A DNA stretch of 64,000 nt from an uncultured bacterium (GCA_963922865.1 CAWUJK010000003.1:1947-65946), one strand, 5' to 3'. Counted from the first letter of the stretch, positions 23,157 to 54,300 are shown. The notes: generated from the sequence alone by a model not told the origin. Program-made: numbers and translations.

Positions 23157-23735
23157 ATGGAAGCTTTTTTAAAAAAAATTGTAGATTGAAATAAGTTTGA
23201 GTTAACTATTGATACTAAGATTTTTAGTAAAGATTTAGTATTAAAGACTTCTTATAATTTTTTAGATTTATGATATTTTTATTTTAAGATGTCTTGAAAC
23301 AATATTGTATTACAGCTTACAAAAAAATCTTGAGATAAAAGAGATTTAGAAGATATCATTTGAGATTTTTCAAGCTCTCTACTTGAGACTTATTTGAGAG
23401 ATAAACTAGAGCGTGATAATAAATCTATCAGAGAAGCTATAGTAGAAAAAGCTATTAATGGTCCTTTGGATGCTAATAATTTTGTTTCTCTTGACACTGA
23501 TAAATGACAAGAAGCTTGAGAACAAACACAGCAAAATCAAATAGACTTTGATAAAGATATAGATGAAATATTAAAAGAGATAGAAAATGATCCAGAGCTA
23601 AAAATAGACGAAGAAGAGATAGAAAAAATATTAAAAGAAATAGAAGAAGAAAGTGAAAGCGAAGCCTCAGCAAAACCTTCTATTAAAATTGATCCAAATG
23701 CTGTAAAAAATGCTAAGAAAAATTTTAAAAAATAA
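23157..23735 (+). CDS. hxsD: HxsD-like protein with acidic C-terminal extension (192 aa)
   Basis: The frame was scanned and is clean. The N-terminal ~100 aa end in SSLLETYLRDKLERD, resembling the LLNDYxLRE signature I recall for the HxsD family. It sits directly upstream of hxsB. Confidence 0.6.
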
Positions 23736-23756
23736 ATTAATATATACTAAGTATTT

Positions 23757-23954
23757 ATGGAAAAACAATATAAAATAGATGGTGATATATATAGTAATGA
23801 AATTATAAATGATGCGATTTCTAGTTTTTCTTGAGTTGCTGATATAAAATATGAAAATAATATGATTTCTATCAGTGCAAGTAATACTTCTGAAGTAGAA
23901 GAGATTTTCAATGAATTTATGAATTATTGTATACATTTAATTAATGAGATATAA
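23757..23954 (+). CDS. small HxsD-like or unknown protein (65 aa)
   Basis: The frame is clean. It ends 2 nt before the hxsB ATG. The C-terminus reads EEIFNEFMNYCIHLINEI. Confidence 0.5.
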
Positions 23955-23956
23955 AA

Positions 23957-25426
23957 ATGTTAGATATAAAAAAAATAAATAATGCAAACACTGATAAAAT
24001 ATGATTTTTTAGGTTCAAAAAATTTGATAAAAATAAGTATTTGATAACAAATGATGCTTGAAAATTTGCTTTTTTGAGTTTGAAAGATTTTGATATTTTT
24101 CTTTCTTGAGAAAAGTTAGAAAAATTAAAAAATTATGATGATTTATTAAAAAAAGGTTTTATCAAAACAGATGATTATAAAGAAAAAATGATATGAAGTG
24201 TTGCACAAAAAAATCATTTTGTATGAGTTGGTCCTACTTTACATATGATAGTCGTTACTCTTAGATGTAATCATAAATGTGAATATTGTCATGCAGCGGT
24301 TGCTCCTATGAGCGCTAAGGAGTTTGATATGAGTAAAGATACAGCTAAAAAAATTGTAGATACTATATTTTATACTAATTCTCCTGCTTTGACAATAGAG
24401 TTCCAAGGGTGAGAAGCTTTAGTTAACTACGAAGTTGTCCAATTTATAGTTGAATACTCTAAACAAAGGGCAGAGCATCTAAAAAAAGAGCTGTCTTTAG
24501 TTATGGTTTCAAATCTTACTTTGATGAGCGAAGAAAAACTGAGTTGGTTACTTGATAATGGTGTAGACGTTTGTACCAGTCTTGATTGAGATGAATTAAC
24601 TCATAATAATAATAGGACTTGATTTGATTGAAATTCTTTTGAAAAAGTTACTTATTGGATGAAAAGAGTTAACGAGGAAAAACAAAAAAGAAATATGTGA
24701 AAAGTTTGAGCCCTTTTAACTGTTACTAAAAAAACTATTCCAAATTATAAAAAAATAATAGATTCTTATATAAAATTGGGTCTTGATTGAATATTTCTTA
24801 GATGGTTAAATCCTTATGGTTTTGCAGCTGCTCAGTTGGATAAACTAGCTTATGAGTCAGATGATTGGATAGATTTTTATAAAAAATCTCTTGATTATAT
24901 TATAGAAATAAATAAAAAATGAACTTTTTTCAAAGAGAGTATAACTTCTGTTTATTTAATGAAGATTTTTAATCCTGTAGATCCGGGTTTTATGGACATA
25001 AGAAGTCCTAGTTGAATAGCTATTTGAGGTGTGGCATATAATTATGATTGAAAAATATACGCTTCTGATGAATCAAGGATGCTTGCTAGGATGTGAGATG
25101 ATGCGTTTTTAATGAGTGATTGAAGCTGAACTCCAGAAGAGAGTTATAGAGAAATGATAAATAGTGATGTAACCAAAGCTTCTGTGCAATCTAGTTGTTT
25201 AGATTGACTTCCTTGATACAATGAGCATGTCTATAAGCCTTATATTGGTGTTGATATCATTCATAATTATAAAGTTGCCTGAAGTTTGTTTAACCCTATA
25301 AAAAAGGATGAAAAGATGAAAATACAAATAGCTATACTTGATTATATATTTGAAAAACTTCAGGATAGTGAAGTTGAGAAAATTTTTATGAGTTGGATAG
25401 CTTGAAAAAATTGAGAAAATGATTAG
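23957..25426 (+). CDS. hxsB: radical SAM maturase, HxsB-like (489 aa)
   Basis: The whole frame was scanned. The triad is CNHKCEYC and the SAM motif is EFQGGEA (second G = TGA). The long C-terminal domain and the position next to the HxS-repeat peptides match the His-Xaa-Ser system architecture. Confidence 0.8.
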
Positions 25427-25444
25427 TATATAATATATAGATAT

Positions 25445-25795
25445 ATGCCGCATAAAAAAAAGAAAATTTTTCCAAAAATTAAAAAGAAATTAAAATGATT
25501 TTTAACTGATGAGAGTTGAAAAATTAGTAAAAAAGATGCATTGGGTTTAGCTGCTGGGAGTGTTTTATTGTGAGGTGCTGGAGAGGTATGAGCTCGAAAT
25601 TATTGAAATCATATAAGTGGTTGATTTAATCTACAAAGTGGTCACCTAAATGCATCTGCTTCTGCTATTTGTAATCATGCTAGTTGACTAATTAATGGGC
25701 ACTATAGTGTTACTCCTAGTGGAACTGCTAAAATTTCTGGACATGCTAGTCATGGTAGTCATGGTAGTCATGGTAGTCATGGTAGTAGGTGGTAG
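25445..25795 (+). CDS. hxsA: His-Xaa-Ser repeat precursor peptide 1 (116 aa)
   Basis: I translated it codon by codon. It has a Lys-rich leader. The core contains HIS, HAS, HYS, HAS and four HGS triplets, and ends HGSHGSHGSHGSRW. Confidence 0.85.
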
Positions 25796-25836
25796 TATAT
25801 CTTATTAGAACATTGTAATATCTTAATTTTGTTTAT

Positions 25837-26316
25837 ATGTGAAATAAAAAAACCAAAATTTTTCCAAAAATTAAAAAGAAATTAAAATGATTTTTAACTG
25901 ATGAGAGTTGAAAAATTAGCAAAAAAGATGCTTTATGATTGGCTACTGGTAGTATTTTATTAAGTTGAGCTGATGAAATTAGCGCTGGTCATTCAAACCA
26001 TGGTAGTCATAGTAGTTGACCTGGTTGACATTTGAATCAAGGTCACGCTAGTTGAAATTTAAGATCGTGACATGTTAGTGCTAATCCTGGTGCAGTAACT
26101 AAGACATCACATGCTAGTTGAATTGTGAATGGTCATTATAGTTCAACCCCTAATTGATGAGTTTATGATCCTGCTCATGCTAGTGGTTATGGTAATTGAT
26201 GACATTTAAATCAGTGAGCTGTTAATTGAAGACTTCATGCTAATCATGGTAATCATAGTAATCATGGTAGTCATGCTAGTCATGGAAGTCACGGTAGTCA
26301 CGGTAGTAGATGGTAA
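25837..26316 (+). CDS. hxsA: His-Xaa-Ser repeat precursor peptide 2 (159 aa)
   Basis: I translated it codon by codon. The leader is almost identical to that of peptide 1. It has about 12 HxS triplets plus HxN variants and the same HGSHGSHGSRW C-terminus. Confidence 0.85.
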
Positions 26317-26328: not shown

Positions 26329-27267
26329 ATGCAAAATATTGATTTTAAAAATGTTAGTTGATTAGAAATTTCTTTATTGTATAAATGCAATGTAGGATGT
26401 GAGTTTTGTCACTTGTGAAATTTGAAAGAAGAACATGAACAAAGGTTATCCAAAGAGCAAGTATTTGATATATTAAAAAATTGATATGAACAATGAAAAA
26501 GATCAGTAATTTTTACTTGATGAGAGCCTACTTTGGAAGTAAACCTGCCAATTTATATACAAAAATCTAAAGATTTATGATTCCAACATATAAGAGTCCA
26601 CTCTAATGGTTTTGCTTTTCAAAATTATAGTTTTGTAAAAAATTTACATGATAAATGATTGACCTGAGTTACTATATCAGTTCATTGATACAAAATTATT
26701 CATGATTGTATAACAAAAACACCATGAAGCTTTGATGTTATATTTAAAAGTTTTATAAATTTTGAAAAAATAATTCTTAAAGATGATAGTTTTTCTGTTG
26801 ATACAAATACTATTATTTGCAGAAAAAATTATAAGTATTTAAAACAGCTTTTGATTTTTTTAATGAAATTTAGTATAAAAAGAAGAATGTTTACCTATAC
26901 ATTTAATACCGTCTTGTATCATGAGTTTTGAGATCTAAAAAGTATTATAGTTTCTTATGAAGAGTTGAAAAATCCCATAAATAAATTGCTTGAATTTTGT
27001 GAATTTAAGAAAATAAAAGATTTTGTATTAGATTCTATACCTTATTGTTTGATAAATGAAAAATATTGGCATTTTATAGAAGAAAATTATCTACCAGATA
27101 AACATTTTTATTTACTTGATTATTATGATTGAAATGATAATACTTACAATGATGGAAAAATAAAGTATATTGAATGTAGAGATTGTAAAAAAGATAAACA
27201 ATGTACATGATTTTCTGAGGATAATAATTTACTTTATTGAAAAATGAATTTTAATATTTTAACTTAG
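26329..27267 (+). CDS. hxsC: radical SAM maturase, HxsC-like by position (312 aa)
   Basis: The frame was scanned. The triad is CNVGCEFC. The SAM motif TGGEP is encoded as ACT TGA TGA GAG CCT at 26515-26529. The C-terminal tail is CRDCKKDKQC. Confidence 0.75.
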
Positions 27268-27959: not shown

Positions 27960-27964
27960 TACCT

Positions 27965-28858
27965 ATGAAAATTTTTTCATCAAAAACAAATTACATAGAA
28001 TTTTTTATAAAAATTTGAAAAAAATGTCCTACAGATTGTACTAATTGTAGTTATGCAAAATCTAAGCTTGATTATTTCTCTTTAGATAATATTTTTGAAA
28101 GAATTGATTATTGAAAAAACCTTTTTTATTCTAAAGATTTTGTTTATTTTCTTTATGGTGTTGATTTTTTATGTCATCCTAAAGCATTTGATATTCTTGA
28201 ATATGTTAATAAAACGAGTAGAAAATTTAAGATTCAGATATGATTAGATAACCTACATAATAAACAAAATATTTTAGAAGAAATATATAAAAAGTACTGA
28301 TTTTTTGAAATAACTTTAGCCAATGAAGTGAATGATAATGAAGATGTAAAAAATGTATTTAAAGCAATATCTGTTTTTTCAAAAATGAAATACCTAAGAT
28401 TTAATGTTGATTTAATTATAGATATTGATTCTAATAAAATATTGGTAGACAAATTAAAATGATTGTTTTGAAACTATTTTATAGATAAAGTACATAAAAA
28501 CTTAAGCTTTGATGATGTATGAAATATAAATCTTTGAATTACTAATAAATTTTATTTTAAACCAAAATCAAAAGAAGTATTATGAGTTTTGTATGATAAC
28601 TGTGTTATGGATGATCTATTTGATATAAAAGATGATGTTATTTATTTTAATGATCATTTGGAGCTAGATTATGATTGAAATTTTATGCTTCATACTCCTC
28701 TTTGTTTTTTAGCCTATATAAAGATAGCTCATAAAAATGATAGTGAAGAAAAAATATTAAATAAGTTTAAAAAATTTAAAAAAGATGTATCAAAAATCTC
28801 TTCAAATATGTCAAATAAGTGTTATAGTTGTATTATAAATAATTACCCTTGAGTATAA
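27965..28858 (+). CDS. radical-SAM-like protein with degenerate SAM-binding motifs (297 aa)
   Basis: CPTDCTNC lies near the N-terminus. There is no clear GGEP. The C-terminus contains KCYSC. Confidence 0.55.
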
Positions 28859-29787
28859 TGAAAGAAATAGTTAAAAAATTTAACGATGTTGCTTTTGTTT
28901 GAACTTATGAATGTAATACTGATTGTGAGTATTGTTTTTCTTTTAAGTATATCAAACCTTATAAAGGTATTGCTATGTCTTTTGAGAATTACAAATTTGT
29001 TTTAGATACTATTATAAAAAATTGAGTTAATTCTATTTCTTTTATTGGTTGAGAACCTGCTTTGTGGAATAATATTAACAAAGCCATTTCTTATGCTAAA
29101 AATTTATGAATTAAAACAACAGTTTTTTCAAACTCAATGATTTGTTTGAAAGAATTACCAGATGTTTTTTACATTCATTTAAATGTTTTATTTTTTTTGA
29201 AAAACAAAAATATAATTAAAAACTTATATGAATATTCTAAAAATTCAAAAATAATTTTTATTTATAATGTTTATAATAGCAATAAATATTCTTTAAACTT
29301 ACTTATAAAAATATTAAAGAGTTTCAAGTTTGATTTTGCTATATCTTTTAATATTGCTTTTAATATCAATATGGATAAAAATTATTGAAACTTTATATAT
29401 AATGCTTATAGAATTATAGCAGAAGAAATGGGAAAAAATGTGCTATCTTCTTGACCTTTACCTCATTGTATTTTTACTGCTGAACAAATATGTTATCTAC
29501 AACAAAAATCTATTTTGGATAATTCCTATTGACCCCCTTGATTTGATAATACAGATGTTTTTTTTCCTGTAGTTAACCCAGATACTAAAACACTTTTACC
29601 TTGTGCACCCATAAATCTAGAAATAAATTCATCGTATTTACTTGAATGAAAATATGATGATTACAAATCATATTATTCCAAAAAATTTGAAAAATTTATT
29701 TATAAAAAAAATAATTTTTGCTGAAATTGTGATAAATTTAATAAAGATTGTCAGTACTGAGGACTCATTAATTTATATTCATTTTAG
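28858..29787 (+). CDS. radical SAM protein (309 aa)
   Basis: The motifs are CNTDCEYC, IGGEP and the tail FCGNCDKFNKDC. The start overlaps the upstream stop (TAATG). Confidence 0.8.
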
Positions 29788-29799
29788 ACTTTTATATTT

Positions 29800-30690
29800 A
29801 TGAATAATCTTTTGTTTGAAATAATAATGTCTAATCAATGTAATAGGAGATGTCCTTATTGCAAATTGGATTTTCATAATAAAATAATATCCCAAGAATA
29901 TCTTGATTCTATGGTTTATTTTTTAGAGTCAAATAAATCATCAATTTCAAACTGTATTATAAACTTTTTTGGTTGAGAACCACTTTTAAACTTTGATTGA
30001 ATAAAATATTTTGTAAGTAAAACTAAACATCTACCTTTTATAAAATATTCTATATGAACAAATTGAATCCTTTTAAATGAAAAAATTTTTAATTATTTAA
30101 ATGAAAATAATTTTCAAATTTATCTCTCAATTGATACTGAAATAGCAGATGTGATTTTAAAAAAAGATTTTTTGAAAAATAATTTAAAAAATATAAAGCT
30201 CAACTTTATAGTTAACCCTAATACAGTAGATAAATCTTTTTTGCTTTTTGATAAATGTATAGATTTTGGTTTTAAAAATATAAATATAATGCCAGTCATG
30301 TTCAGTATAAAATGGAATAAAAATTCTTTTTCTTTACTTAAAAAATTTATTGATACTAAAATAAAACCTTTTAAAAATTATGATATTAATTTAGTTTCAT
30401 ATTATAACTGATTTACCACTGATATACAATATGTTTTAGATTCTGATGGATTTGTATACTTAGATCTTGACAGTCTGCTTTGGATACAAAAACAATGATC
30501 TATCTTATCTTCTAAGTTAAAAGATAAGATACATAATTATACAAAAATATGAAAAATGCAAGATATAAGTTTCAAAAAATTAATTTCTTCTTATAATATA
30601 AAAGAAATTTTAAAATTAGTTTTAGAAATACCAAAATACCAATGATTTTTAAAAGATTATAAAGTAATATCTAAAATATTTAATGGATAA
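29800..30690 (+). CDS. radical SAM protein (296 aa)
   Basis: The motifs are CNRRCPYC and FGGEPLLN. It joins track ORF 30151..30411. Confidence 0.8.
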
Positions 30691-30724
30691 CAATAAACTA
30701 AATCTTTGGAAATATATTACTTAT

Positions 30725-32014
30725 ATGAGATTGAATATGATGAATTCATATTATTTTCCATTGGAACCATTTTATGAGAAAAATCTTAATATTTCAAAAG
30801 ATTTATTTATAAAGTCACTCAGATCAAAAAATAAATGATTATATATTCATATACCTTTTTGTATTACTGAATGTTCTTATTGTGCTTGTACTAAAATGCA
30901 ATTAAAAAATGGAATTTCTACATCAATTTATGTTGAATATTTAATAAAAGAACTTGAAATTTTTTATAAGCTAAACTCTAGAAAAAAACTTATTTTTAAT
31001 ACTCTTACTTTTGGTTGATGAACGCCATCAATATTATCAATTTCTGATATTGAAAATCTTTTTTCTTGAATATATAAATATGTAGAAAAAAAATTTATTA
31101 CTCAAATTAGTTTTGAAGCTGCACCCTATACTATAACAAATGAAAAAATAGATATTTTGAAATCTATGTGAGTAAATAGAATGTCATTTTGAATACAATC
31201 CTTAGACAAGCAGATACTAAAAAATAATAACAGACCATATATACCAAAACAAAAAATTAAAGCACTAGTAAAATATATACAAAGTTTATGAATTAGTATT
31301 GAAGCAGATTTGATTGTTTGAATAAAATCACAAACAATCAAATCTGTAATTGAAGATGTAAAATTTTTGTTGTCCATGTGATTAGATGATATAACCTTTA
31401 ATTATTTTTCACCTCATAGATTTTCAAAATATATAGATAATAAAGATACTATAAACTTGAAAGAAAAATTTAAACTTATAGATAAAAAATTAGTTGAAAA
31501 TTGACAGGTTAAATGATCTTATTGTTTTCAAGAAAGATATATTTACTCTGCTAGAAGATACACTATTATTGGTCTAGGATATGGTGCCACTTCAAATCTT
31601 TGAAATAGTTTTGTTTATGTAAAAGATTCTTTACAAGATTACTATGATTTGATTGATAAATGAAAAATACCAGCATCATCATGAATATATATGGATGACA
31701 ATTTTGAATATATAAGATATATTTATTGGCATATCATCAAATGAGAAATAGATTTGATTGAAATGAATAGAATTTTTTGAGTAGATGTATATAATAAATT
31801 TAAAAAAGAAATTGATTTTTTAGTTCTTGAAAAAATAATTGAATATGATGGAAAATCAATAAAAAATATAACATCTATTGACAATTTATTTATCCATTTA
31901 ACCGTTTTTATTGAAAACATAGTAGAAAATAGTATGTTTTCTAAATCACCTAAAAAACTACCAAAAAATATTGATATGATTCTCAAACAAATGATATATG
32001 ATTATGTAATTTAA
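30725..32014 (+). CDS. HemN/HemW-like radical SAM protein, paralog 1 (429 aa)
   Basis: The motifs are LYIHIPFCITECSYC, FGGGTPS and GVNRMSFGIQS. Confidence 0.8.
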
Positions 32015-32015
32015 A

Positions 32016-33335
32016 ATGAATAAAAAAAAGCTAGATTTTCGGAAATTTATGACATATAAAATGTTATCACTAAATTCATCTTTTGTATTTCCATTGGAGT
32101 TTTTTTTCAAACCTAATTTCAAACCAAATATATCTGAGATATCATCATACTTAAATAAAAAAAATAAGTGACTATATATTCATATACCTTTTTGTATTAA
32201 AATTTGTGATTATTGTGGTTGCTATAAACAAAAAGTATCAAAAAAAGATGATTTAGATAAATATGTTGATTATTTAATAAAAGAACTAGAGATTTATTAT
32301 GAGTTGAATAATTCAAAAAAACTAGAATTTACAACTATAATGTTTTGATGATGAACCGCTTCTATCCTAACGGTAAAGCAACTTGATAAATTATTTTATT
32401 GACTTTATAAATTAATAGATAGAACTAATCTCAAACAAATAAGTTTTGAATCTTCTATTTTTACATTGAATAATTCTAAAATAGATATTTTAAAAAAATA
32501 TGATGTTGATAGAATTTCTATTTGAATACAAAGCTTTGATAAAACTGTTTTGGAAAAGAATAATAGAGTATATATGGAATATTATAAGATAAAAAATATA
32601 GTAAACTATATAAAAAAATCATGAATTTTAGTTCAGGTTGATCTAATGATATGAATAAAATGACAAAATGAAAAAAATTGTATTAAGGATTTTAAAAAAA
32701 TGATAGAACTTTGAGTTGATAGCTACACAATGAACTATTATATAGCACATGATTATGCTAATTTTTCTGATACAAAAAAGGGATTGAATTTAAAGGAAAC
32801 AATGAAAAAACTAGACCATAAATATAATTTTATAGCAAAACATAAATGATCATATTTACTCCAAGAAGATTTAGTTTTCAATGATTTTAATTATTTTGTT
32901 GTATGACTTTGAGTTTGAGCAACTAGTAATATTTGAAATAAATATATTTATAGAAAAACCAATTTTTTAAATTATTATAAAAATATTGATAACAAAAAAA
33001 TAATTGCTGATAGCTGAGTTGTTGCTCCAACTAATTTTCCAGAGATAAAGTACATGTTTGAAAAATATAAAGACTGAGATATTGAGTTTGAAAACTTCAA
33101 AAATACTTTTTGAAAAGATATAAAGATTTTATTTAAAAAAGAATTGGAATTTTTAGCTTTAGAGGGTATTATAGATATAGGTGAAACTAATTTAAAATTT
33201 TTGAAAAATAAATATGAATCTAGAATATATCTAAATGTTTTCTTAGAAAATTTTTTTGAAAGTAAAAAAGATATAGAAATTCCAGTTTTGGATAAACAAT
33301 TCCATTTAGATTTAACATGACTTATATATGAGTAA
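32016..33335 (+). CDS. HemN/HemW-like radical SAM protein, paralog 2 (439 aa)
   Basis: The motifs are LYIHIPFCIKICDYC, FGGGTAS and DVDRISIGIQS. It starts 1 nt after the paralog 1 stop. Confidence 0.8.
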
Positions 33336-34002
33336 TATTATAAAATATGATAAAAATATAAAAATATCTTTATCTAACTGAAAAATTGTCAAAAAACATA
33401 AGTATTTTAATAATTATATAAGAGAGAAAAAAGCATACTTATTTTTTTCAAAAAATAATTTAGAAAATTTTAATATACCAAAAATAATTAAGTTTTATGA
33501 TAATAAAAAAATTATTGAGATGGAAAATATAGATTGATCTTACACTTGAGAAATACTAAAGTCTAAAATCAAAAATAATTTAGAATTTGCTATTAAGCTC
33601 TTTAAGAATTTAAATTCTTGACTTAAAAGTTTACATAATTTTGAAATCAGAGATTGATTTGATATAGATGAAATATTTCATTTTGATAGAAATAATCCAT
33701 ACATGAAGAATGTTTTTAAAAGTTTTGGTATACAACATTATCCTATTGAAAAGTGTTTTGTCCATTGAGATTTAACATTTGATAATATTATGTATAAAGA
33801 TGATAAATTATACTTTATTGATTTTACTGCTTTTTGTATCTCTGATAAATATTATGATTTTGTTTTTTATTATTGATTTGCTGAATTGTTAAGTTTGGAT
33901 ATATTATTAAAGTTAATAAAAATATTTTATTGAGATAAATTTAATTATAACAAATTTGAAACTTATGTTATATTGAAATGAATTAAAAGTTTAGATTTTT
34001 AA
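33328..34002 (+). CDS. small kinase of the aminoglycoside/choline-kinase (APH) fold (224 aa)
   Basis: The motifs are HGDLTFDNIMY and LYFIDFT (catalytic loop and DFx-like). It overlaps the upstream gene by 8 nt (ATGAGTAA). Confidence 0.6.
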
Positions 34003-42939: not shown

Positions 42940-42941
42940 TT

Positions 42942-43793
42942 ATGATTAAAAACAATAATATTTTATCAGATTTGAGGATAGTAAATACTTGTTCTAATAA
43001 TTGTTTATATTGTCTTGAGCAATCTTATAGAAAAAAACAAAAATTTATTGATAAACAGTATATATTTGATTTGTTGAGTAAATCAAATACATGAACTAAT
43101 ATAAATTTTTATTGATGAAATCCACTTTTACATCCATATTTAATTGAAATAATAAAATTTTCAAGGACTAAATTTGAAAATATTTGATTATTAACTAATA
43201 CTTTTTGATTAAATAAAAATTTTTTAGATGAACTTATAAACTCTTGACTTAACTCTATTTGAGTTTATTTCAATAGCTTTTCAAAACATAAACATAAGCT
43301 GATAAATTGAAATTGAATTAGTTTAAAAGAGTTATTAGATAATATAAAACTCTTAAAAAATAATCCTATTTTTTATAAAATTATAATACATATAAATAAT
43401 CAAAATATTGATGAACTTTATAGAGACATTTTGATCTTAAATACTAAATTTTGAGTAAAAAATATAGAATTTATAAACTATTTTCCATTTGACAGACCTT
43501 ATCAAAATAAAAAAATATTAGAGTATAGTTTTTCTAAAAATAGACAAAATATAGATAATATATTCAAGATTATAGAAAAATTTAATATAAAAGTGAAGTT
43601 TATTAAATTTGATAAAAAATTTTTCTGAAAATATTTTAAATACTATGATTTTGATAACTGAATTGTAAGTCAAATTTGAGAAGAAGATTTCAAAAGACTT
43701 TCTTGAAAAAAAACTCCTTTTTGTTATACTGAACAAAGGTGTGATAATTGTTTTATAAAAGATAATTGTAGATTTTATGTACTTTGAAGCTAA
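42942..43793 (+). CDS. radical SAM protein (283 aa)
   Basis: The motifs are CSNNCLYC, YGGNP and the tail RCDNCFIKDNC. Confidence 0.8.
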
Positions 43794-44640
43794 TATATGA
43801 TATTTTTGTAAGAAAGATTGTATTTTTTGCTCAGAATGATGATATTGAAAACGAAATGTATTAGAGTTGAAGGATTTTAAAAAAATTATTATAAAAAAAA
43901 AATTTACAAAAGTAGTTTTAACTTGATGAGAACCTATTTTAAACCCAAATTTGATAGAGTACATAAATTTTTGTAAAGAAAATAATATTTATGTTTCACT
44001 CGTTACTGCATTTGAACCCTATTTGAGTGAAAATTTTATAGATTCTATTATTAATAGTTGATTAGATGAATTAATGCTTTCTATACAATGACCAGAAAAA
44101 ATACATGATTTCTTAATTAAACAAAAATGATCTTTTAAAAGTCAAATTTTTTTGTTAAACTATTTAAAGTATAGACCAAATAAATTCAGAGTCATTTTAC
44201 ATACTAATATAAACAAATTCAATTATAAAGTTTTGCCTTTTTTTATAAACAAAATGTTTTTTTTATTTCCTTATATCTCGGTTTATCATATTCAGGCTTT
44301 AGAATATGATTGAAGCGCAATTAAAAATAAAACAATTCTTTTTGATAAATATACAACACTTTTCTCTGTTTTTTTTAGTAAAGTTTCCAATATTAAAAAT
44401 TTAGATAGAATTAAGTTTTGAAGAATACCATATTGTGTTGTGGATCAAAAATATAGGTTTTTGATTTGAAATACACCTAAAACATTTAATAAGAGAGATT
44501 GATACTATAAACAAGATATGGTATATAAAGAATGAATATATGATGAAAAGTGTCATGGATGTAAATATTATTATTCATGTGATAAATTTACAAATGTTTA
44601 TGTTGAAAAATTTTGAGATGAAGAAATACAATTAATATAA
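43777..44640 (+). CDS. radical SAM protein (287 aa)
   Basis: CKKDCIFC begins 10 codons after the ATG. The other motifs are TGGEP and the tail KCHGCKYYYSC. It overlaps the upstream gene by 17 nt. Confidence 0.75.
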
Positions 44641-44646
44641 TTATTT

Positions 44647-45630
44647 ATGAATTATAAAAGACTTGAAATTTATTTATGATGGACATGTAATAATAAATGT
44701 CTATTTTGTATTGAAATGGCTACTATGGATAAAATGTGGAATAAAAAAGTAAGTGAAGCAGAAATACTTAAAAAACTTTTGAAATATAAGAAGCTATGAT
44801 ATAATCATGTCACATATTTATGATGAGAACCTTTTATCCAAGACAACTTTCTTTTTGCCTTAAAAACTTGAAAAAAACTTTGATACACTATAATGGTTAC
44901 AACAAATGGAAATTTAATTCAATATCACAAAGCTGCCAAAAAATATCTTTCATATATAGATGAACTTATAATATCCATTCCAATAATAGATCAAAAATTA
45001 CAATTAAAAATTAACAATACAAAATCTATTATTGATTTTAATAAGGTTTTTCAGAATATAGATAAGTATTGGAATTGAATTTTTTTGAAAGTAAATACTG
45101 TTATGAATCCTTTAAATATAGATCATATATATGATATAGTAAAATTTATACATAATTATGGTGTTAAAGAATTATCTTTAACATACCCTGATATAGATAC
45201 TTATAAATACAGTGATGAGCATATAAAAAAATATTTGATATTAAGGTATGAAGAAGTAATTAGAAAAATAGAAAAATCTTTTGTTTTTTCATTAAAATCA
45301 TGAATAAATATAAAACTAACTGATGTACCTTTCTGCTTTTTACCTAGTAAAAATTGGATAAAGCATACAGACGATTATGATTATGACTGAAGAACTAAAA
45401 TTATGTATCATTGATGAGAATTTAAAAGAAAATGAGCACTAGATAGGTTGAGTAATTTAGAGTCAGTTCTTGATAAAAATGAAGATGATAATGCGAAAGA
45501 AGTTATAAACCCTAGAATGAGAAAGTATTTAAAAGAGTGTTACAAATGTAAATATTTATGAAAATGTTGGTGAGTAGCGGATAGTTATGATCATTTTTAC
45601 AAGGATACTAAAATTAAACCCATTTTATAA
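44647..45630 (+). CDS. radical SAM protein (327 aa)
   Basis: The motifs are CNNKCLFC, LGGEP and the tail ECYKCKYLGKC. It merges track ORFs 44893 and 45085. Confidence 0.8.
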
Positions 45631-45633
45631 TCT

Positions 45634-46629
45634 ATGTCTGAAATTGAAAATAAATTTGAACATTTTATAAATGAAATTATAAGAATCAATTATAAATGTA
45701 ATTGGAAATGTAATTTTTGTAATGTATGACTTGTAAATAACTATTGAGATAAAGATATAAATCACAAAGAAGTAATTTATAAGATTTTGACTTTGGGTAA
45801 GAAATATTCTTTAAAAGAGAAGTCGAATTTAGTATTATCTTTTTCATGATGAGAACCCACTTTGAATAAAAATTTATTTAATTACATAAAATTAGCAAAA
45901 AATATATGAATTTGAAGAATACAAATTCAGACTAACTGAAGTTTACTTTATTTAAATCACTCCCTTTATGATAAATTATTTTCTGCGTGATTGAATGAGA
46001 TTTTTTTAGCACAACATTCAGAAAATTTAGAAACAAATATGGAAATGTGATGTTATTATGATTTCAATGATTTCTTAAGTTGGTTTAATTATGTAAGAAA
46101 TAGTAGAAAAAATATAAAGATTTATTTAAATATAGTTATTACGAAAATTAATATAGAGTTTTTATATAAGTTTATAATTAAACTTATAGATATATGATTT
46201 ATAAAACATATATGAAATAAAATATCTTTTTGATTTTGTCAACCAAACTGATATGCTTGGGATAATAAGGAAGATACCTTACTTGTTTTTGATGATTATC
46301 AGATTAATTTGATTAATAAAGTAATAAATTATTGTAAAAGTAGGGATATTTATTTGGATTTTCATTATACTTCACCTCCAATTTGTATATTACAAAACCC
46401 TGAATATAATCTTGAATATAAAAAGCTTAAGATTTTAAAAAATAATAAAAATATAAGCACTTTTAATCTAAATAGTTTCAAGTTTTTATGGAAAGAAAAA
46501 AGTAAGTTAAGTATTTGTAAGACTTGTAGGTATGATAATTATTGTCTTTGATTCTACAAAAATTGGATAAAATACATATGAAAAGACATATTAATACAGA
46601 GGGTTAAAGACTTTTTATCAAAATATTAG
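45634..46629 (+). CDS. radical SAM protein (331 aa)
   Basis: The motifs are CNWKCNFC, SGGEP and the tail ICKTCRYDNYC. Confidence 0.8.
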
Positions 46630-46673: not shown

Positions 46674-47915
46674 ATGAAAATTGACTTATATGATGATTTT
46701 CTAAGCATATTTGTTTTAATATATTCAGATTTCCATTTAGTAGATCTTTATACTTATGAAAATTATAATAAATTATTTAAAATTGAAATAAAAAATATAA
46801 ATAATAATTTTTTTGATTTTTTACATGTCTCAGTAGTAAAAAATAAGTTTATAGTTATTAGAAAAAAGAAAAATCAATATTTAGATTTTTTCATTGATAT
46901 TTTAAATGAAAATAGTTCTTGAATAGAAAATTCAAAAACATATAAGAATATGTCTCATTATAAAATAAAGACAGACTTTAGAAATCATTTGCGTCTATTA
47001 TTTTCTTTGATAATAGAAACTTGATTAAGAGATAATACTAATTTTGATAAGCAATTATCATATTTTAAGCAAAATAACTTAACATCTTATCTTGTTCTTA
47101 GCACATTATTAAAATGATTTAGGTGAGATATGAATTTGCTACAGTGAGTTAAATATAATAACTTGTTGATAAAAAAATATCCCAATATTTCTTCTTTTTA
47201 TACTTGGCGAGTTAGAAATGTTTTTTTCCATTACATTCAAAAAGTTTTATGACATGAACTTTATTATAAGCTTTTAGAAAATAATAAACAAAAACTTTTA
47301 AGTTCTTACTATATGAAACTTATTTTTTACGATTTAGAAAAATCAAAAAAACTTAATAAAAATAATTATATTACTTACATGTTTGAGTGACATATATATT
47401 TATATTTATGAGATGATAAATGAATATGAATATTAAAGTGACTTAAATGAAAGATATCAGATTCATTGTATAGTAAGGATGTGTTAGTTTGGATATGAAA
47501 TTATTATCTTTGGAAAAAAGATTATGAACTTGCTGAAAAATACTTATTAAATAGCGATATAAAAGATAATTTTAGATTTTATAGAAAAATAATACCAGTA
47601 TATATATTATCATGACAAAAAAACAAGCTAATATCAATTTTTAATGAATTAATTAATAAATGATATAAGATATTTTTATTTAATAGGAAACATGATGTTG
47701 AATGAAGTTATTTGTTGGGTGAAAATTATATAAAAAATGAAGATATGAACATACCTATAGATATTTGACATGAAACATTTAAAAGTATTGTTGAATTAAT
47801 ATGAAAGAAATCTATTAATGTAGATTCATCTATGTTATTTTATAAATATTTTAGAAAAAATTATAATAAGTACTTTTTAGATGACTGTAATTATAGTCTA
47901 ATTTTTCAAAAATAG
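46674..47915 (+). CDS. hypothetical protein, possibly helical-repeat (413 aa)
   Basis: The whole frame was scanned and has no TAA or TAG. I recognise no motif. Confidence 0.6.
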
Positions 47916-48502: not shown

Positions 48503-49411
48503 ATGCAAAAATTTAGTATAATATCACATATTACCACTTCTTGTAATTACAATTGTTCGTATTGTGATGTTATTAAAGATGGTAAAAAATTAAAACTAGA
48601 ACATAGGAATGAAATAGTTGATTTTATAGTTAAAAATCAAAATTATATATGAGATTTTAAGTTTTTTGGTTGAGAACCACTGTTAGCTTTTCCGGATGTA
48701 AAATATATAGTAAGTAATTCAAAAAACAAAATAAAAAATGATTTTTTTGAACTAGTTACCAACACATCTCTTATAAAAAAAGAACACTTAGAATATTTCT
48801 CAAAAAACCTTAAAACCCTTTACTTTAGTGTAGATAATGAAAACATATTTAGAGAAAATTTGTTTTTAGATATAATAAAAAATTATCCAGCCTTAGAAAG
48901 AAAAATTTATATAAATCTTATAATAGATCCTAAAAAAATAAAACAATCAAAACAACTTTTTGATAGATTATATGATATATGATTTTATTGATATAATTTA
49001 TTACCAATATATTTTACTAAAATTTGGGATAAACAAGAACTTCAAGAGCTATCAGTTTTCATAAAGTATATTCTTGATTTATCAATCAAAGAAAATAAAC
49101 TTAGGATGTATTGATTTATGAATGGTAAATGATGAGAATCAAAACTTTCATATAATTCTCTTTTCATAAATATTGACAAAAAAATTTATTACTCAGATAT
49201 GGTATCAACATTTATGTGAGCTAAGATTAAGAATGAATTATACATTTGAGAAACTGATAAACTTAAATTAGAAAAACTAAACAACTTTGAGCTTGAGAAT
49301 AAAAAAGAAATTTTGAGAAACTTGGAACAAGAAGTTACAAATAAAGTTAAATGACAAAAACAATTACAAAAACTTATGGATTATTTTTCATTATATTTAA
49401 ATAATAAATAA
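48503..49411 (+). CDS. radical SAM protein (302 aa)
   Basis: The motifs are CNYNCSYC and FGGEPLLA. Confidence 0.8.
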
Positions 49412-49497
49412 AAAACATTTAAAAACAATTACAAAAACTTGTAAATCCCTAAATTATATATATTATGGGGATAATAATACCTAAATTTACCATTATT

Positions 49498-50628
<1,131 letters not shown>

Positions 50629-50686: not shown

Positions 50687-51976
50687 ATGGAAAACAAACA
50701 AAACCTACTATCCAAAGAAAAAACCCAAAAACAAAATAGAATATGGGTTAGAATAGCTTCAGCTTGTAACAACAAGTGTATTTTTTGTTTGGACAGTGAC
50801 GCACAAAACTGAACATTTCCAGATGAAAATAAAATAAAAAAAGAAATAAAAAATTGATATAAAAACTGATTTGAAAATAGAGTAATTATATCTTGATGAG
50901 AAGCAAGTATAAATCCCAAGTTTCATGAATATATAAGATACTCAAAACAAATTTGATATGATAGAGTACAAACAGTTACAAATTGAAATATGTTTTTTCA
51001 TGAAAAATTTTGTGAAAAAGTTTTTGCAGCTTGATTGGAAGAAGTTACTTTTTCTTTTCATTGACATAATTCAAAACTTCATGATTATCTTGTAGCTACA
51101 CCTTGAGCTTTTAAAAAGTCTTTAAAATGACTTATTTATATCAAAAAACATTTTCCAAAAATTATTATAAATATAGACATAGTTGTAAATAAAGTAAATG
51201 TTAGATATTTACCAGAAATCGTTAAATTTTTTATGAAATTAGGGGTATATGAATTTGATATATTGCAAATAATACCATTTTGAAGATGATTTAAAGAACA
51301 TAAAAATACTCTTTTTTATAATATATCAAAAAATATAAAATATTTGCAAGATACTTGGAAATTATCTAAAATACCCTGAATGTATATGTGGACAAATAGA
51401 TTTCACAGCGAAGCATTTGAATGATTTGAAGATCTTATACAAGATCCAAGAAAAATAAAATCAGAAGTTATGTGAGAAAGTAGGGAAATGTTTGAACCAT
51501 TTATAAAATCAAAATGAAAAATAAAACCAGAATGTTTTTGAGAGAGATGTAAATATTGTTTCATAAACCAATATTGTCATGGTTATTTAGAAAGTATTAA
51601 AAACCCTTTATTACTAAAAAATAATAATCAAAAAAAAGATTATATTATAGTAAATTGAGAAGAATTTCCAAGTCAAGTTTATGAAAAATATTGAGAAACA
51701 TGAGAAGACTTTAAAAATTATTTGAAAAGTTTGAAAAAAGATATAATAAATATCCCAAAATGTTTATGATGAACTTGAGTGTATCAAAATTATAACGATT
51801 TAATAAGAAAAAGAACCCTAGAAGACTATACCAGTAAATATATAAAAAATTTATATAGAAAAAAATCTTTGAGATGTGAGAATTGTAAATATTATAATAA
51901 TTGTGAATGAATACATCTAAATTTTATAAGAAGTTATTGATTTGATATTTTAGAGCCAATTTTATGAAACAATTAG
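50687..51976 (+). CDS. radical SAM protein with two C-terminal Cys clusters (429 aa)
   Basis: The motifs are CNNKCIFC, SGGEA, ERCKYCFINQYC and RCENCKYYNNC. Confidence 0.8.
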
Positions 51977-52181
51977 TATTATTTTGTTTATTATTTATAT
52001 TCTTTACGAATAAAGTTTATGCATTACCTATTTCTGCATTATTTTTGTGATTAGATTTTATACTTTTCTTAGTTCCATGAGTATTATTGTTATTTTCAAC
52101 TCTATATTTTTATTTTAAAAAATATATTTTACACTTTAATCTATTTTTAATAGTTCTATTTTTTGTTAATTATATATTTCA

Positions 52182-53291
52182 CTATAATATTACAAATGAA
52201 ATATTATTTTTCTTGTATTCTTTTTTATATTCTTCTAAATATGAAAAAGCTATATATTTTTGTTTTTCTAATTTTAGAAAACATCTAGTTATAAAATTTG
52301 TTTTGTAATCAAAATTTAAATCTAAATTACTTTTATTTTTTAATAAAAAACTATATTTATGGTTTGTAAAAAACTTAATTAATATATTTTTATTTAATTT
52401 TTGTAAAAGGAATAATTTAATTATATTAAATATAATCTTTTTAAATAAGTATCTTTTGTAATTTTTATAAAATAAAATTAAATTAATATTTTGAGTTTTT
52501 ATATTTCTAAATGAAAAATATGGAATTAGTTTACTTTTAAAATATAAATTTCAATCCAAGTATATCAAGTTAAAAATATTTTTCAGTACCTTATATGAAA
52601 AATAATCTTGCTTATCTCACAATTCATCAAAATCTAACTTTTTGTAAACTCAATTAAATTTAATTATTTCAGAAAAATCATAAATAGTATTATTTCATGT
52701 TGTTATATTTCTTGTTTGTAAGATAATGATTTTTCAATTTTGTATACAAAACTCTATATTTTGTGGAAAGTTTAATAATGTTTCCAATTTTTTTCATAAT
52801 AATTCTAATTCTTTTTTTAAACTAAAATTTAAGTTATATTTTTTATTGCCTCTCCCAGAAGTTACATCATCATATTTTTTTCAAATTTCATAGAATCATT
52901 TTTTTAATATATTTTTAGGCGATCGAGAGAAGTACACTCAGTATATTTCTGTTTCTATAAATTCTTGTATTATTACTGATAACAAAATTTTATTTTGTCA
53001 TCAAAACCATTTTGTGTTATCATTATCTGTTAATATTTTTTTTATTTCTTGTATGTCATGTGGTATTATACTATTGAAAAATCAAGCATAACTAATGTTA
53101 GTTCAATCTTCTAATTTAAAACTTGGTCTTAAAATATATTTTTTGTTTCTTTTTAATAGATTAAAGTCAAAATTTTTTGTTTCTTGTATGTTTATTATAA
53201 ACGTTTTTGGAATTAAAAAATCATTTTTGTATAGTTTAATAATATTACTTGCTTTATTTCAAACATCTTTTTTATTTCAAAATACTTTCAT
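52182..53291 (-). CDS. PEP/pyruvate-binding (PPDK_N-type ATP-grasp) domain protein (369 aa)
   Basis: The whole frame was scanned. The motifs are GNKASNIIKLYKNDFLIPKTFII, VIIQEFIETEIYGVYFSRSP and ILQTRNIT. Confidence 0.55.
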
Positions 53292-53355
53292 TTTTTGTTT
53301 ATATTAATATAATTTAGCTTATTATATAATAAAAAATAAATTTTAAAATAATTTT

Positions 53356-54300
53356 ATGGCAAATATATGATACATACAAGTAAACAGGCATTGCAATAAT
53401 TGATGCCATTTTTGTAGTAACCCAAGTAATGGAAATAATATTAGCTATAATCGATGAATAGAGCTTATAGATGATTTTATAGAAAAAAAATACAATTGAA
53501 TAATATTTACATGATGAGAACCAACATTATCACCAGACCTAGCAAAATGGATAGAGTATGCCAACCAAAAAGGCATACACTCTAGAATGATATCAAATGG
53601 AATGATGTGTGCAAACCCAGATTTTATACAAAAATTAGCAGATTCTTGACTAGAATTAATACACTTTTCAGTTTACTCTTGTTATGAAAAAGTACATGAT
53701 TTTTTAACAGATACCCCATGAAGTTGGAAAAAACTTATGATGAGTATAACAAACGCACTAAACTCTTGAATAAGAGTACAAATAAATACAGTTATAAATC
53801 ATTATAATGAAACACACCTTGATAAAACTATTAAATTTCTATCAAAAACATTCCCTCCAATAAAACATTTTGTTTGGAATAACTTAGATCCAGAAATGAT
53901 GAGAAAAACAGATATAGCACGGTCTACTTTACCAAATTTTGATAATTTTAAACCATCTTTGAATAGAGCTATGGATTATCTTGATTCACTGTGAAAAACA
54001 TATAGAGCAGAAAAAATGCCACTTTGTTATATAAGATGACATGAATGGTGTTCTACAGAAACAAGAAAAATAGTAAAAGATGAGGAAAGAATAGTACATT
54101 TTCTAGATTTCAGAGAAACTATTCATGAAGTAGAGTGGTGACATGAAAAATTACCTGAATGTAGTGAATGTGATCTGAACAGTATATGTTCTTGAGTTTA
54201 TGAATATGAAAGATATTATAATTTTGTAAAAGTATACCCACAAAAGCTAGAAAAAAAGGAAAAACAAGAAATTATTGATAAAATAAAATGAACTTTTTAG
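53356..54300 (+). CDS. radical SAM protein (314 aa)
   Basis: The motifs are CNNGCHFC, TGGEP and the tail ECSECDLNSIC. Confidence 0.8.

Follow-up and report, generated by a model that had tools for sequence, protein, structure and literature searches.

A probable expanded His-Xaa-Ser protein-maturation island with 17 radical-SAM genes in a Gracilibacteria genome

We describe a 64,000-nucleotide stretch of DNA from an uncultured bacterium (CAWUJK010000003.1:1947-65946; hereafter the window, with genes named by their first position in it), in which 17 radical S-adenosylmethionine (rSAM) genes are gathered around a His-Xaa-Ser (Hxs) system at positions 23157-54300. The region is probably an expanded, Gracilibacteria-type Hxs protein-maturation island of 31-36 kb, in which a conserved core and a variable cassette act on HxsA-like proteins before their export. 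The core consists of HxsD, a second HxsD-like protein (HxsD'), HxsB, one or two HxsA-like precursors, the rSAM proteins 50687 and 53356, a PPDK_N-type protein, an A24-type protease and an aKG-HExxH hydroxylase. The cassette comprises HxsC-like, HemN-like and SPASM rSAMs together with two carbamoyltransferases, a NAD-dependent oxidoreductase and a kinase, and we infer that every cassette enzyme acts on HxsA.

An earlier note on this DNA stated that canonical Hxs systems have no characterised product, but this is now out of date: the canonical HxsD-HxsB-HxsC-HxsA system (HXS) has been shown to be a broad anti-phage system with a matured HxsA, which blocks the entry of phage DNA (Li et al., Nat Commun 2026, PMC13128918). 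There, HxsA is matured by HxsB and HxsC, which involves processing of its N-terminus and a change of +8 Da on SHRSS, the mature HxsA is a periplasmic effector, HxsC binds HxsD in E. coli, and mutation of Cys in either cluster motif of HxsB or HxsC abolishes defence (PMC13128918). Canonical systems are found in Pseudomonadota in 99.7% of cases and have four genes with HxsB and HxsC adjacent in 99.8%, and intergenus transfer within Pseudomonadota was suggested by the authors (PMC13128918). The type of system is therefore known. However, no description of this island was found in the literature on radical SAM in Gracilibacteria, Absconditabacteria, BD1-5 or Patescibacteria, and the variant with up to 17 rSAMs (three of them core), an extra HxsD-like gene, an altered HxsB and linked A24, HExxH and carbamoyltransferase genes, which is conserved across Gracilibacteria, was not found described.

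Results

Genetic code and related loci

When the window is translated with table 11, only 12 open reading frames (ORFs) of at least 100 aa are obtained (about 4.6 kb in total), whereas 75 such ORFs tile the window when UGA is read through. In Der/EngA and in aspartyl-tRNA synthetase (AspRS), UGA occupies positions where Gly is invariant (GTTRD and DTGGL, with UGA marked X), and the window is therefore read with code 25 (UGA = Gly), as the earlier note had assumed. This is the code of Gracilibacteria and Absconditabacteria, and the close homologues of the window's proteins carry the annotation 'Candidatus Gracilibacteria bacterium'. Related loci, given below by L numbers, were collected in two ways. 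Species-representative genomes were scanned with HxsB, which gave eight loci from Gracilibacteria (54-75% identity) and three from the Planctomycetes-Verrucomicrobia-Chlamydiae (PVC) group (36-37%), and a precursor-alignment scan of metagenome contigs gave 12 further loci; they were annotated under code 25 and compared with the window.

The Hxs head and its substrates

The proposal that the region is built around an Hxs system is borne out by profile searches, in which HxsB, HxsD and HxsD' all score above their cut-offs (Table 1). HxsB aligns to positions 3-466 of the 466 of TIGR03978, matches PF04055 with 46.7 bits, and is 64-79% identical in relatives. Its SPASM region is altered: five columns that are conserved as Cys in HxsB proteins from Lentisphaerota, Kiritimatiellae and Akkermansia are replaced in Gracilibacteria by G, Y, H, I/L and M/I/N, and all five Gracilibacteria HxsB proteins that were compared (window, L003, L008, L009 and L016) carry the replacements.

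Downstream of HxsB, two HxsA-like precursors with 59% identity to each other contain tandem His-Xaa-Ser motifs (8 and 12) and C-terminal (HGS)3-4 repeats; both terminate in HGSHGSHGSRW, and their cores are 61-66% H/S/G/N. Precursor 1 shares the conserved leader FLTDESGKISKKDALG, the hydrophobic stretch and an (HGS)4-RW tail, which in the DNA is a 9-nt tandem repeat, CATGGTAGT five times, and Gly in the HxsA-like tail repeat is coded by GGT and not by UGA. About 20 HxsA-like homologues of 116-194 aa on other contigs have the leader, core motif and tail in common. Their basic N-terminus follows IFPKIKKKLxxFLTDESGKI[ST]KKDALG, a Gly/Ala-rich hydrophobic stretch ends at a V-x-A-like site, the variable core is rich in His, Ser, Gly and Asn (14-17% His) with one to three SGIVNGHYSxTP-type motifs, and the tail has 3-16 HGS repeats, usually with Trp at the end. 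A conserved leader and a variable core beside modifying enzymes, as seen across these homologues, is the arrangement of precursors of ribosomally synthesized peptides with post-translational modifications (RiPPs). The HxS proteins were said to be the only recognisable substrates, and this agrees with our search of the island gaps, which gave no further precursor-like ORFs.

The 17 radical-SAM proteins

Each of the 17 ORFs reported with a CxxxCxxC triad was recovered with exactly the start and triad given in the earlier note. About 0.03 triads are expected by chance from the Cys frequency, and shuffling gave a mean of 0.12 proteins with a triad (maximum 2), compared with 18 observed in the window. 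The eighteenth (CNISCSKC) belongs to a 63-aa, Ser/Cys-rich, low-complexity ORF at 568-759 on the minus strand, which is probably no gene. The earlier note had reckoned with most of the ORFs failing rSAM thresholds; instead, 16 of the 17 pass the gathering threshold of PF04055 (38-86 bits against 29.5), and the remaining one, 27965, scores 19.3 bits. All 17 are rSAM-fold proteins, because 16 pass Pfam and the structure model of the 27965 family matches rSAM enzymes. As proxies for the window's proteins, models were built on database orthologues or family members. The 27965 family is small, with the triad and four more Cys invariant, and in a Foldseek search the top PDB matches of its AlphaFold model (predicted local distance difference test (pLDDT) 84) were exclusively rSAM enzymes (MoaA, SuiB, DesII, EpeE and BlsE). 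A profile-profile comparison of the 27965 and 53356 families gave E = 0.033 with shallow profiles.

The assignment to specific families is much less complete, since only HxsB passes a family-specific cut-off. A GGEP-type motif, said to be present in most of the proteins, was found in 15 of the 17 (10 GGEP, 2 GGEA, GGTP, GGTA and GGNP) and is absent in 27965 (YGVD) and 34052. Likewise, the estimate of about ten cysteine tails holds at the level of the motif: CX2CX5-6C was counted in 10 of the 17, including 26329, 28858, 39839, 42942, 43777, 44647, 45634, 50687 (which has a second copy) and 53356. A Pfam SPASM match (PF13186) is seen in only 2 of the 17. Seven of the proteins form an HxsC-like group (26329, 42942, 43777, 44647, 45634, 50687 and 53356; pairwise identity 22-30%), nearly all with a CX2CX5C tail. 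There are also a HemN-like pair (30683 and 32016, 42% identity), a short PapB-like pair (29800 and 48503) and the SPASM-positive 34052 and 39839, while 27965, 28858 and 41307 fall in no group.

The genes are tightly packed, as previously described, with 1-nt overlaps at 28858, 34939 and 39839, an 8-nt overlap at 33328 and a 17-nt overlap at 43777. Their near-complete co-directionality was likewise recovered as 28 consecutive plus-strand genes over 23157-47915, with gaps of -17 to +85 nt, an arrangement resembling a single transcription unit. In the 23157-54300 interval, rSAMs account for 17 of 31 genes and 18.2 of 31.1 kb (58% of the DNA). Judged from related complete chromosomes of 1.0 and 1.49 Mb, the island takes up 2-3% of the genome, in line with the large fraction that had been estimated.

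Conservation of the core and turnover of the cassette

More than 10 independent Gracilibacteria contigs share the head and the rSAM train, so that linkage to HxS peptides extends across relatives, and the scattered, unlinked homologues that the earlier note would have counted against its claim were not what we found. Because this order recurs, the extra rSAM genes are no chance neighbourhood. HxsD and HxsB followed by an HxsA-like gene are present in every Gracilibacteria locus found with HxsB, with HxsD' in all but L009. An rSAM train follows the head in L003-L010, L016, L025, L030 and L031, and is present wherever the contig extends further. At the other end, on contigs that extend to it, orthologues of 50687 and 53356 and then an opposite-strand A24-like gene form the tail in L001, L015, L016, L017, L018, L020 and L021; after the A24-like gene there is usually a HExxH hydroxylase and often a 20674 homologue.

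Complete islands vary considerably in size: about 11 kb with 4 rSAMs on ctg52610, a 1.0 Mb chromosome (L016); about 11 kb with 7 rSAMs on JAHDGX010000006.1 (L005); about 24.6 kb with approximately 8-10 rSAMs on OZ245768.1, a 1.49 Mb chromosome (L003 and L015); and about 17 kb with 12 rSAMs on Ga0210025_1000060 (L030 and L021). The 17 rSAMs of the window are the largest number seen, compared with 4-12 in the complete relatives. Ga0210025_1000060 is collinear with the window for 26329, 27965, 28858, 29800, 34052, 39839, 42942, 48503, 50687 and 53356, and the closest relative, L019 (ERZ930066), is orthologous in the same order over 27273-45634 at 55-78% identity (about 30% for the 27273-like protein). 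HxsB, 50687 and 53356 are 61-81% identical between genomes, on a par with the neighbouring aminoacyl-tRNA synthetase (73%, OZ245768.1), whereas the cassette rSAMs range over 19-78% and differ in presence. The island looks vertically inherited. Scans of viral contigs with HxsB and with the HxsA alignment gave one distant HxsB (37%), no HxsA3-type gene and no Gracilibacteria-type copy.

The PVC-group loci are compact, with the order (D)-B-C-A, two rSAMs and an HxsA of 85-93 aa, and the best match of their HxsC in the window is 53356. Since the top HxsC and HxsC4 scores in the window also fall at 53356 and 50687, respectively, the cassette lies inside the Hxs unit. Its position between the precursors and the HxsC-type genes speaks more strongly than any other observation for counting the cassette as part of the system. 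A search with 53356 gave 1402 database homologues, of which the best 120 have at least 66% identity, all named ones among these being Gracilibacteria. The model of its orthologue P0002 (pLDDT 81) consists of an rSAM core and a C-terminal domain, with fold matches (template-modelling (TM) score 0.5-0.64) to BlsE, GDGT-MAS, viperin, anSME, SuiB, SkfB and MoaA. The fold class is confirmed in this way, with no close solved relative among these matches. The matches to anSME and SuiB (TM 0.63-0.64) run along most of the length.

Two gene fusions concern the carbamoyltransferases. In L019 (15029-17692) a carbamoyltransferase is fused to a 42942-type rSAM (68%), and in L020 (6571-9249) another is fused to a 29800-type rSAM (42%), giving proteins of 887 and 892 aa, respectively. 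Being independent of each other, the two fusions link the carbamoyltransferases with the rSAM set. A nitroreductase gene directly follows the L019 fusion.

Genes linked to the tail

The A24-like gene adjoins the 53356 orthologue in L001, L005, L015, L016, L018 and L021, HxsB in L008 and the HxsA-like gene in L028, and a second copy occurs in L021. From this linkage, the A24-domain protein 54311 is a candidate HxsA-processing protease. The hydroxylase gene 55699 falls beyond the 23157-54300 interval and belongs to the aKG-HExxH family, whose members are experimentally demonstrated RiPP tailoring enzymes (PMC12636437). The secreted protein 20674 probably resides in the envelope and is associated with the island, and it may belong to the system. 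The island has no exporter gene. The ATPase gene 49465 sits between two island rSAM genes, a position at which other islands do not have it, and it is probably an inserted defence-type gene outside the pathway; two 49465-like genes lie just beyond the island on OZ245768.1. Features of the individual genes are collected in Table 1.

Table 1. Genes of the island and linked flanking genes, with profile evidence and features in relatives
Gene product	Position	Strand	Profile or motif evidence	Relatives and further features
Large secreted protein, 756 aa	20674..22944	-	sole hydrophobic segment 1-24, signal-like; no Pfam match	homologues (30-36%) at island tail, after 55699 orthologue, in L001, L018, L021
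HxsD	23157..23735	+	TIGR03976 56.9 bits, cut-off 50	orthologues, 40-69% identity, at head of every related locus
HxsD-like small protein (HxsD')	23757..23954	+	NF038315 41.9 bits, cut-off 41	conserved in related loci, between HxsD and HxsB
HxsB rSAM maturase, one of three core rSAMs	23957..25426	+	TIGR03978 486.8 bits, cut-off 370	
HxsA-like precursor 1, 116 aa, 8 HxS motifs	25445..25795	+	HxsA3 model 26.6 bits, cut-off 65	
HxsA-like precursor 2, 159 aa, 12 HxS motifs	25837..26316	+	HxsA3 model 38.9 bits, cut-off 65	
HxsC-like rSAM beside precursors	26329..27267	+	PF04055 60.1 bits; CX2CX5C tail; HxsC4 85 bits, HxsC 63 bits, both under cut-off	positional homologues (31-38%) after HxsA in L007, L010, L020, L030
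Lipoprotein-like, 228 aa	27273..27959	+	signal-like segment (hydrophobic 1-24) and Cys; no family match	orthologue about 29-30% in L019; membrane-anchored proteins of about 230 aa after HxsA in L003, L006, L009
Divergent rSAM-fold protein, degenerate GGE motif	27965..28858	+	PF04055 19.3 bits, cut-off 29.5	
rSAM, CX2CX6C tail	28858..29787	+	PF04055 38.3 bits	orthologues 63% (L019), 45% (L030)
Short PapB-like rSAM without auxiliary Cys	29800..30690	+	PF04055 43.4 bits; PapB 81 bits, under cut-off	paralogous to 48503, 29% identity
HemN-like (class C type) rSAM	30683..32014	+	PF04055 69.6 bits; HemN, ChuW/HutW and STM4012 models 125-138 bits, each under cut-off	PDB matches HemN 1e-20, NocN 7e-13
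HemN-like rSAM, 30683 paralogue	32016..33335	+	PF04055 64.7 bits; with 30683, 110-138 bits on HemN, HutW and STM4012 models, below cut-offs	42% to 30683; orthologue 69% in L019
APH-type kinase-like	33328..34002	+	PF01636 32.3 bits, cut-off 23.2	no orthologue among sampled relatives
rSAM with SPASM	34052..34939	+	PF04055 50.7 bits; PF13186 22.4 bits, cut-off 21.5	orthologues 39-78%
GFO/IDH/MocA-type NAD-binding oxidoreductase	34939..35700	+	PF01408 40.4 bits	homologues within islands of L010, L019, L020, L030
Carbamoyltransferase (NodU/CmcH/TobZ family), weaker N-terminal domain	35705..37807	+	PF16861 136.7 bits, PF02543 34 bits	35% to 37815; orthologue 66% in L019
Carbamoyltransferase	37815..39839	+	PF16861 205.7 bits, PF02543 89 bits	just about 4 close full-length relatives; homologous domains fused to rSAM domains in L019 and L020
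rSAM/SPASM, N-terminal extension of about 115 aa	39839..41221	+	PF04055 70.3 bits, PF13186 23.2 bits; NirJ2 and AhbD-like models under cut-off	orthologues 52-72%
rSAM, additional N-terminal CX2CX5C	41307..42599	+	PF04055 42.5 bits	orthologues 62-63%
Small 112-aa protein	42601..42939	+	weak Bro-N match only, below cut-off	L019 orthologue 55%
HxsC-like rSAM	42942..43793	+	PF04055 68.4 bits; CX2CX5C tail	
HxsC-like rSAM	43777..44640	+	PF04055 53.3 bits; top NCBIfam HxsC4, HxsC, under cut-off	no clear orthologue among sampled relatives
HxsC-like rSAM	44647..45630	+	PF04055 60.2 bits; HxsC4 71.5 bits, HxsC 59 bits; prokaryotic viperin model 67 bits, cut-off 180	orthologues 45-72%
HxsC-like rSAM	45634..46629	+	PF04055 51.1 bits	orthologues 47-54%
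413-aa protein	46674..47915	+	no Pfam or PADLOC match	no orthologue in sampled relatives
Short PapB-like rSAM, 29800 paralogue	48503..49411	+	PF04055 44.4 bits	orthologues 45-48%, five relatives
AAA_14/DUF4143 ATPase	49465..50628	+	PADLOC PDC-S01 504 bits; PF13173 and PF13635	
Core rSAM, HxsC4-like, two CX2CX5C motifs	50687..51976	+	PF04055 64.7 bits; HxsC4 135.3 bits, top of all ORFs, cut-off 500; HxsC 77 bits	orthologues 61-78%, seven relatives
PPDK_N (ATP-binding, PEP-synthase-like) protein	52182..53291	-	PF01326 43.6 bits	homologues within islands of L001, L008, L016, L020
Core rSAM, best canonical-HxsC counterpart	53356..54300	+	PF04055 85.8 bits; HxsC (TIGR03977) 101.7 bits, top of all ORFs, cut-off 267.9	
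Polytopic membrane protein, prepilin-peptidase (A24) domain	54311..55642	-	PF01478 29.9 bits, cut-off 26.5	both catalytic Asp motifs conserved, also in relatives
aKG-HExxH-type peptide hydroxylase	55699..56814	+	TIGR04267 59 bits, cut-off 40; HESSH motif	orthologues (40-67%) island-linked in L001, L008, L015, L018, L021

Discussion

Compared with the canonical HXS, the island has several features in common. HxsB and HxsD score above their family cut-offs, the substrate has HxS repeats and a signal-like N-terminus, the genes are co-directional, there are rSAMs of the HxsC type that carry a second Cys motif, and maturation of the substrate presumably takes place in the cytoplasm, ahead of its export. 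In contrast, the island has 17 rSAMs instead of two and 31-34 genes instead of four, with HxsB (ending at 25426) about 28 kb away from the best HxsC counterpart (starting at 53356). It has an extra HxsD-like gene and two precursors, which have their own conserved leader and core motif and no peptidoglycan-binding domain. Its HxsB is without the auxiliary-cluster Cys (the C399/C402 motif in E. coli), and an A24-type protease, an aKG-HExxH hydroxylase, a PPDK_N protein, carbamoyltransferases, a kinase and an oxidoreductase are added. Finally, it occurs in Gracilibacteria and looks vertically inherited. Among the NCBIfam variants, the best-scoring model is HxsA3 (NF038309) in the case of the precursors, HxsC4 (NF038332) in that of 50687 and 26329, and HxsD-like (NF038315) in that of 23757; the HxsD-like cut-off is passed, whereas the precursors and the HxsC4-like ORFs (at most 135 against 500 bits) are relatives and not members of these families.

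The island can also be compared with multi-rSAM RiPP pathways (those with SPASM maturases of the sactipeptide, ranthipeptide and streptide types, with class C rSAM methyltransferases such as NocN, or with rSAM epimerases such as EpeE), which likewise have a leader-bearing ribosomal precursor, rSAMs with SPASM or Cys tails, HemN-like rSAMs, a hydroxylase and a candidate protease. Fold matches of the modelled island families include SuiB, anSME, SkfB and EpeE, and the HemN-like pair resembles NocN, a RiPP-acting methyltransferase. However, the substrate here is no short peptide but a protein, 116-194 aa long and with an N-terminus that resembles a signal, there is no dedicated exporter, and to our knowledge 17 rSAMs are far above the number in characterised RiPP clusters.

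For the pathway, we propose that, while still in the cytoplasm, the two HxsA-like proteins would be modified by rSAMs at a number of sites of the HxS and SGIVNGHYS types. HxsD and HxsD' would probably bring the HxsC-like rSAMs to the substrate, because these rSAMs have no N-terminal recognition-type extension and the E. coli HxsC binds HxsD. Hydroxylation, carbamoylation and phosphorylation could add further decoration. The product would then exit by means of its long, basic N-terminus, which by its sequence looks like an export signal, be trimmed, perhaps by the A24-type protease, and reside in the cell envelope. Within this N-terminus, SKKDALG (RRED in L008) might be likened to a twin-arginine motif and xG/FLTDE (the slash marking the putative cut) to a prepilin cleavage site, both as speculation. 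By analogy with the E. coli HXS, the mature product may block the entry of phage DNA. The genomic context is consistent with an anti-phage role, with PDC-S01 inside the island, AbiEii upstream, toxin-antitoxin modules on OZ245768.1 and a retroelement in L018. Against a typical defence system, the core genes show housekeeping-like conservation and look vertical, and no copy of the Gracilibacteria type was found on viral contigs. Alternatively to a phage barrier, such core-gene-like conservation could indicate a permanent component of the envelope, with diversifying selection acting on its chemistry.

We also put forward, tentatively and as a possibility that we do not expect to be the final answer, that the core locus serves as a protein-decoration diversification locus. 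A three-rSAM Hxs core would bracket a fast-turnover cassette (up to 14 rSAMs plus carbamoyl-, phospho- and hydroxyl-transfer), which would write lineage-specific radical modifications on an exported, His/Ser/Gly-rich envelope protein as a chemically variable surface or gatekeeper layer against phages or in prey contact, a protein counterpart of O-antigen diversification. As in O-antigen and capsule loci, conserved flanks surround a variable, fast-diverging centre; this analogy is architectural only, as the island enzymes are of rSAM and peptide-tailoring types, the presumed substrate is a protein, and glycosyltransferases and sugar-nucleotide genes are absent.

Several observations weigh against an Hxs maturation island. 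No ORF passes the HxsC (TIGR03977; 0 of 17) or HxsC4 cut-off, both precursors are below the HxsA3 cut-off (NF038309), and neither has a Pfam match to the peptidoglycan-binding domain of the E. coli HxsA. The auxiliary-cluster Cys whose mutation kills defence in E. coli are missing from HxsB, and its chemistry must differ. Because these Cys are replaced and the matching E. coli mutant loses defence, the Gracilibacteria HxsB must work without that cluster, the function of which may be supplied by other rSAMs with a C-terminal Cys motif. At the putative A24 site, the position ahead of Phe is taken by G, N, S, A or Q rather than by Gly throughout, and the prepilin-type reading stays speculative for this reason. 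Promoter and terminator scans gave counts equal to the shuffle expectation at 22% GC and are therefore uninformative on operon limits, so that operons are not delimited. Finally, the nearest solved relatives of the HxsC-like group include the small-molecule enzymes BlsE, viperin, MoaA and DesII, and carbamoyltransferases, GFO/IDH/MocA oxidoreductases and APH-type kinases are typical of sugar or nucleoside small-molecule tailoring.

The last two points would fit a composite locus, in which a small Hxs core (HxsD, HxsD', HxsB, HxsA and one to three HxsC-type rSAMs) hosts an embedded separate pathway that would produce or act on a different target, for example a small molecule resembling a nucleoside or a sugar, or a further envelope protein of the 20674 or 27273 type. 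We regard this as unlikely, although it is the rival that deserves the most weight. The cassette is optional, as the minimal island on ctg52610 has 4 rSAMs, the neighbours of the cassette enzymes in sequence and fold include BlsE, MoaA, DesII and viperin, and a 20674-type protein is repeatedly linked to the island; Pfam shows no RiPP recognition domain in the cassette rSAMs, for which no dedicated search for the RiPP recognition element was made. However, the cassette has the precursors on one side and the HxsC-type genes on the other, with stop and start codons that overlap, its order is collinear in distant genomes, and the protein-modifying HxsC itself falls in the same MoaA-like group. In addition, family scans of the island found no glycosyltransferase, sugar-nucleotide enzyme, transporter or scaffold-building enzyme.

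Given that the canonical HXS is anti-phage (PMC13128918), the rSAMs could also be separate anti-phage effectors gathered beside Hxs, for example viperin-like makers of chain-terminating nucleotides. Partial PADLOC pVip matches (up to 86 bits), PDC-S01 inside the island, AbiEii upstream, and the toxin-antitoxin modules and diversity-generating retroelement of related islands point in this direction. The pVip matches span the generic rSAM core only, though, and the NCBIfam prokaryotic viperin model (NF038283) reaches at best 67.2 bits (44647) against a cut-off of 180. Moreover, close coupling and a shared order from genome to genome set these genes apart from defence genes, which shuffle independently, and the core rSAMs have vertical, housekeeping-like conservation, with no Gracilibacteria-type copy found on viral contigs. 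The viperin or independent-effector reading was rejected on the NCBIfam cut-offs and synteny, and we consider a defence island of this kind very improbable. Slightly less improbable, but still doubtful, is the same maturation with another role, the His-rich product being a factor for metal binding or acquisition or for contact with host or prey instead of a phage barrier. The His content of the cores and the Trp-ended (HGS)n tails would suit it, the locus behaves as a vertical core locus and not as sporadic defence, and large secreted proteins and pilin-like genes flank the island in sampled relatives. On the other hand, for Hxs systems of any kind experiments have shown anti-phage activity alone, genes of defence type are inserted within and near the islands, and the island has no metal transporter or regulator. 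We thus retain the expanded Hxs maturation island as the probable reading.

The chemistry of Hxs modification is unsolved even in the two-enzyme E. coli system (+8 Da on SHRSS). A natural series of 4 to 17 rSAMs on one substrate family could help to assign radical reactions on His/Ser/Gly-rich sequences, which is relevant for radical-SAM and RiPP enzymology as well as for the biology of bacteria with reduced genomes. Enzyme combinations that have yet to be described are indicated by the fusions of carbamoyltransferase with rSAM and by an HxsB that has no ligands for an auxiliary cluster, and the island suggests an unusually elaborate chemical decoration of an exported protein. Here, in a genome reduced to about 1-1.5 Mb, an Hxs system behaves as a core locus that is conserved, and since 2-3% of the coding capacity and many Fe-S clusters are spent on it, it must have an important role, be it in phage exclusion, in the envelope or in host contact.

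Additional observations

The genetic code has consequences for public data: the island is mostly missed by standard pipelines, and its public proteins rest on the wrong code. Public entries of the window's proteins (P0001, P0121 and P0241) were translated with UGA as Trp (code 4), by which GGEP becomes WWEP, and P0001 differs from the code-25 translation of 53356 at 14 positions, every one G to W. Such mistranslation cuts apparent identity by about 4% and may mask motifs. A seemingly close relative, L002, proved to be the window's own contig, DRIS22-1_SAMN24661207_METAG-scaffold_4 (ENA, 85.7 kb; 0 mismatches), of which the window is approximately 20,343-84,342. Its 96% identity arose because 14 UGA codons were translated as Trp, and L002 was removed as independent evidence. 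The G+C content of the window is 22.6%; it is 28.7% over HxsB and the precursors (24000-26000), compared with 19-23% over most of the cassette (28000-50000), and the GC skew is positive across the entire co-directional block.

Some related islands carry further insertions or duplications. On Ga0210025_1000060 (L021, 9989-20364), past the first island and a 20674-like gene, there is a second HxsA-like gene (130 aa, ending in SGGWC), accompanied by three more rSAM genes and a second A24-like gene. In L018 (5115-9862; GCA_028688895.1, JAQTXG010000001.1), a diversity-generating retroelement (bAvd and reverse transcriptase) lies between the 50687 and 53356 orthologues and adjoins a 712-aa pilin-like N_methyl/Fib_succ_major protein. 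The Hxs head on OZ245768.1 (L003, 9485-14294) is broken by toxin-antitoxin-type modules, with a DUF4160/DUF2442 pair between HxsD' and HxsB, and two nucleotidyltransferase/NTase_sub_bind (HEPN-like) pairs and an AbiEii fragment between HxsB and HxsA.

That head directly follows orthologues of 5004-8877 (L003 4510-8554), whereas about 14 kb intervenes in the window, and the left boundary of the island has therefore been rearranged. The 14-kb stretch contains photolyase-like and LexA-like genes (by N-terminal sequence), tRNA-Cys, AspRS, Der, AbiEii, YceG and 20674. The AbiEii toxin gene at 18756-19463 (PF08843, 78.5 bits), upstream of the island, comes after an ORF of 188 aa (18185-18751) that has no Pfam match and could be the AbiEi partner. 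The tRNA-Cys (GCA) at 11723-11797 on the minus strand is the sole RNA gene found in the window by ARAGORN and Rfam, and the Rfam scan gave no riboswitch or other RNA within the island. On the other side, 60548-61393 and 61494-62327 on the minus strand are adjacent paralogues of about 280 aa with N-termini of the form MGxI...SC...AENLDL, the former with no Pfam match.

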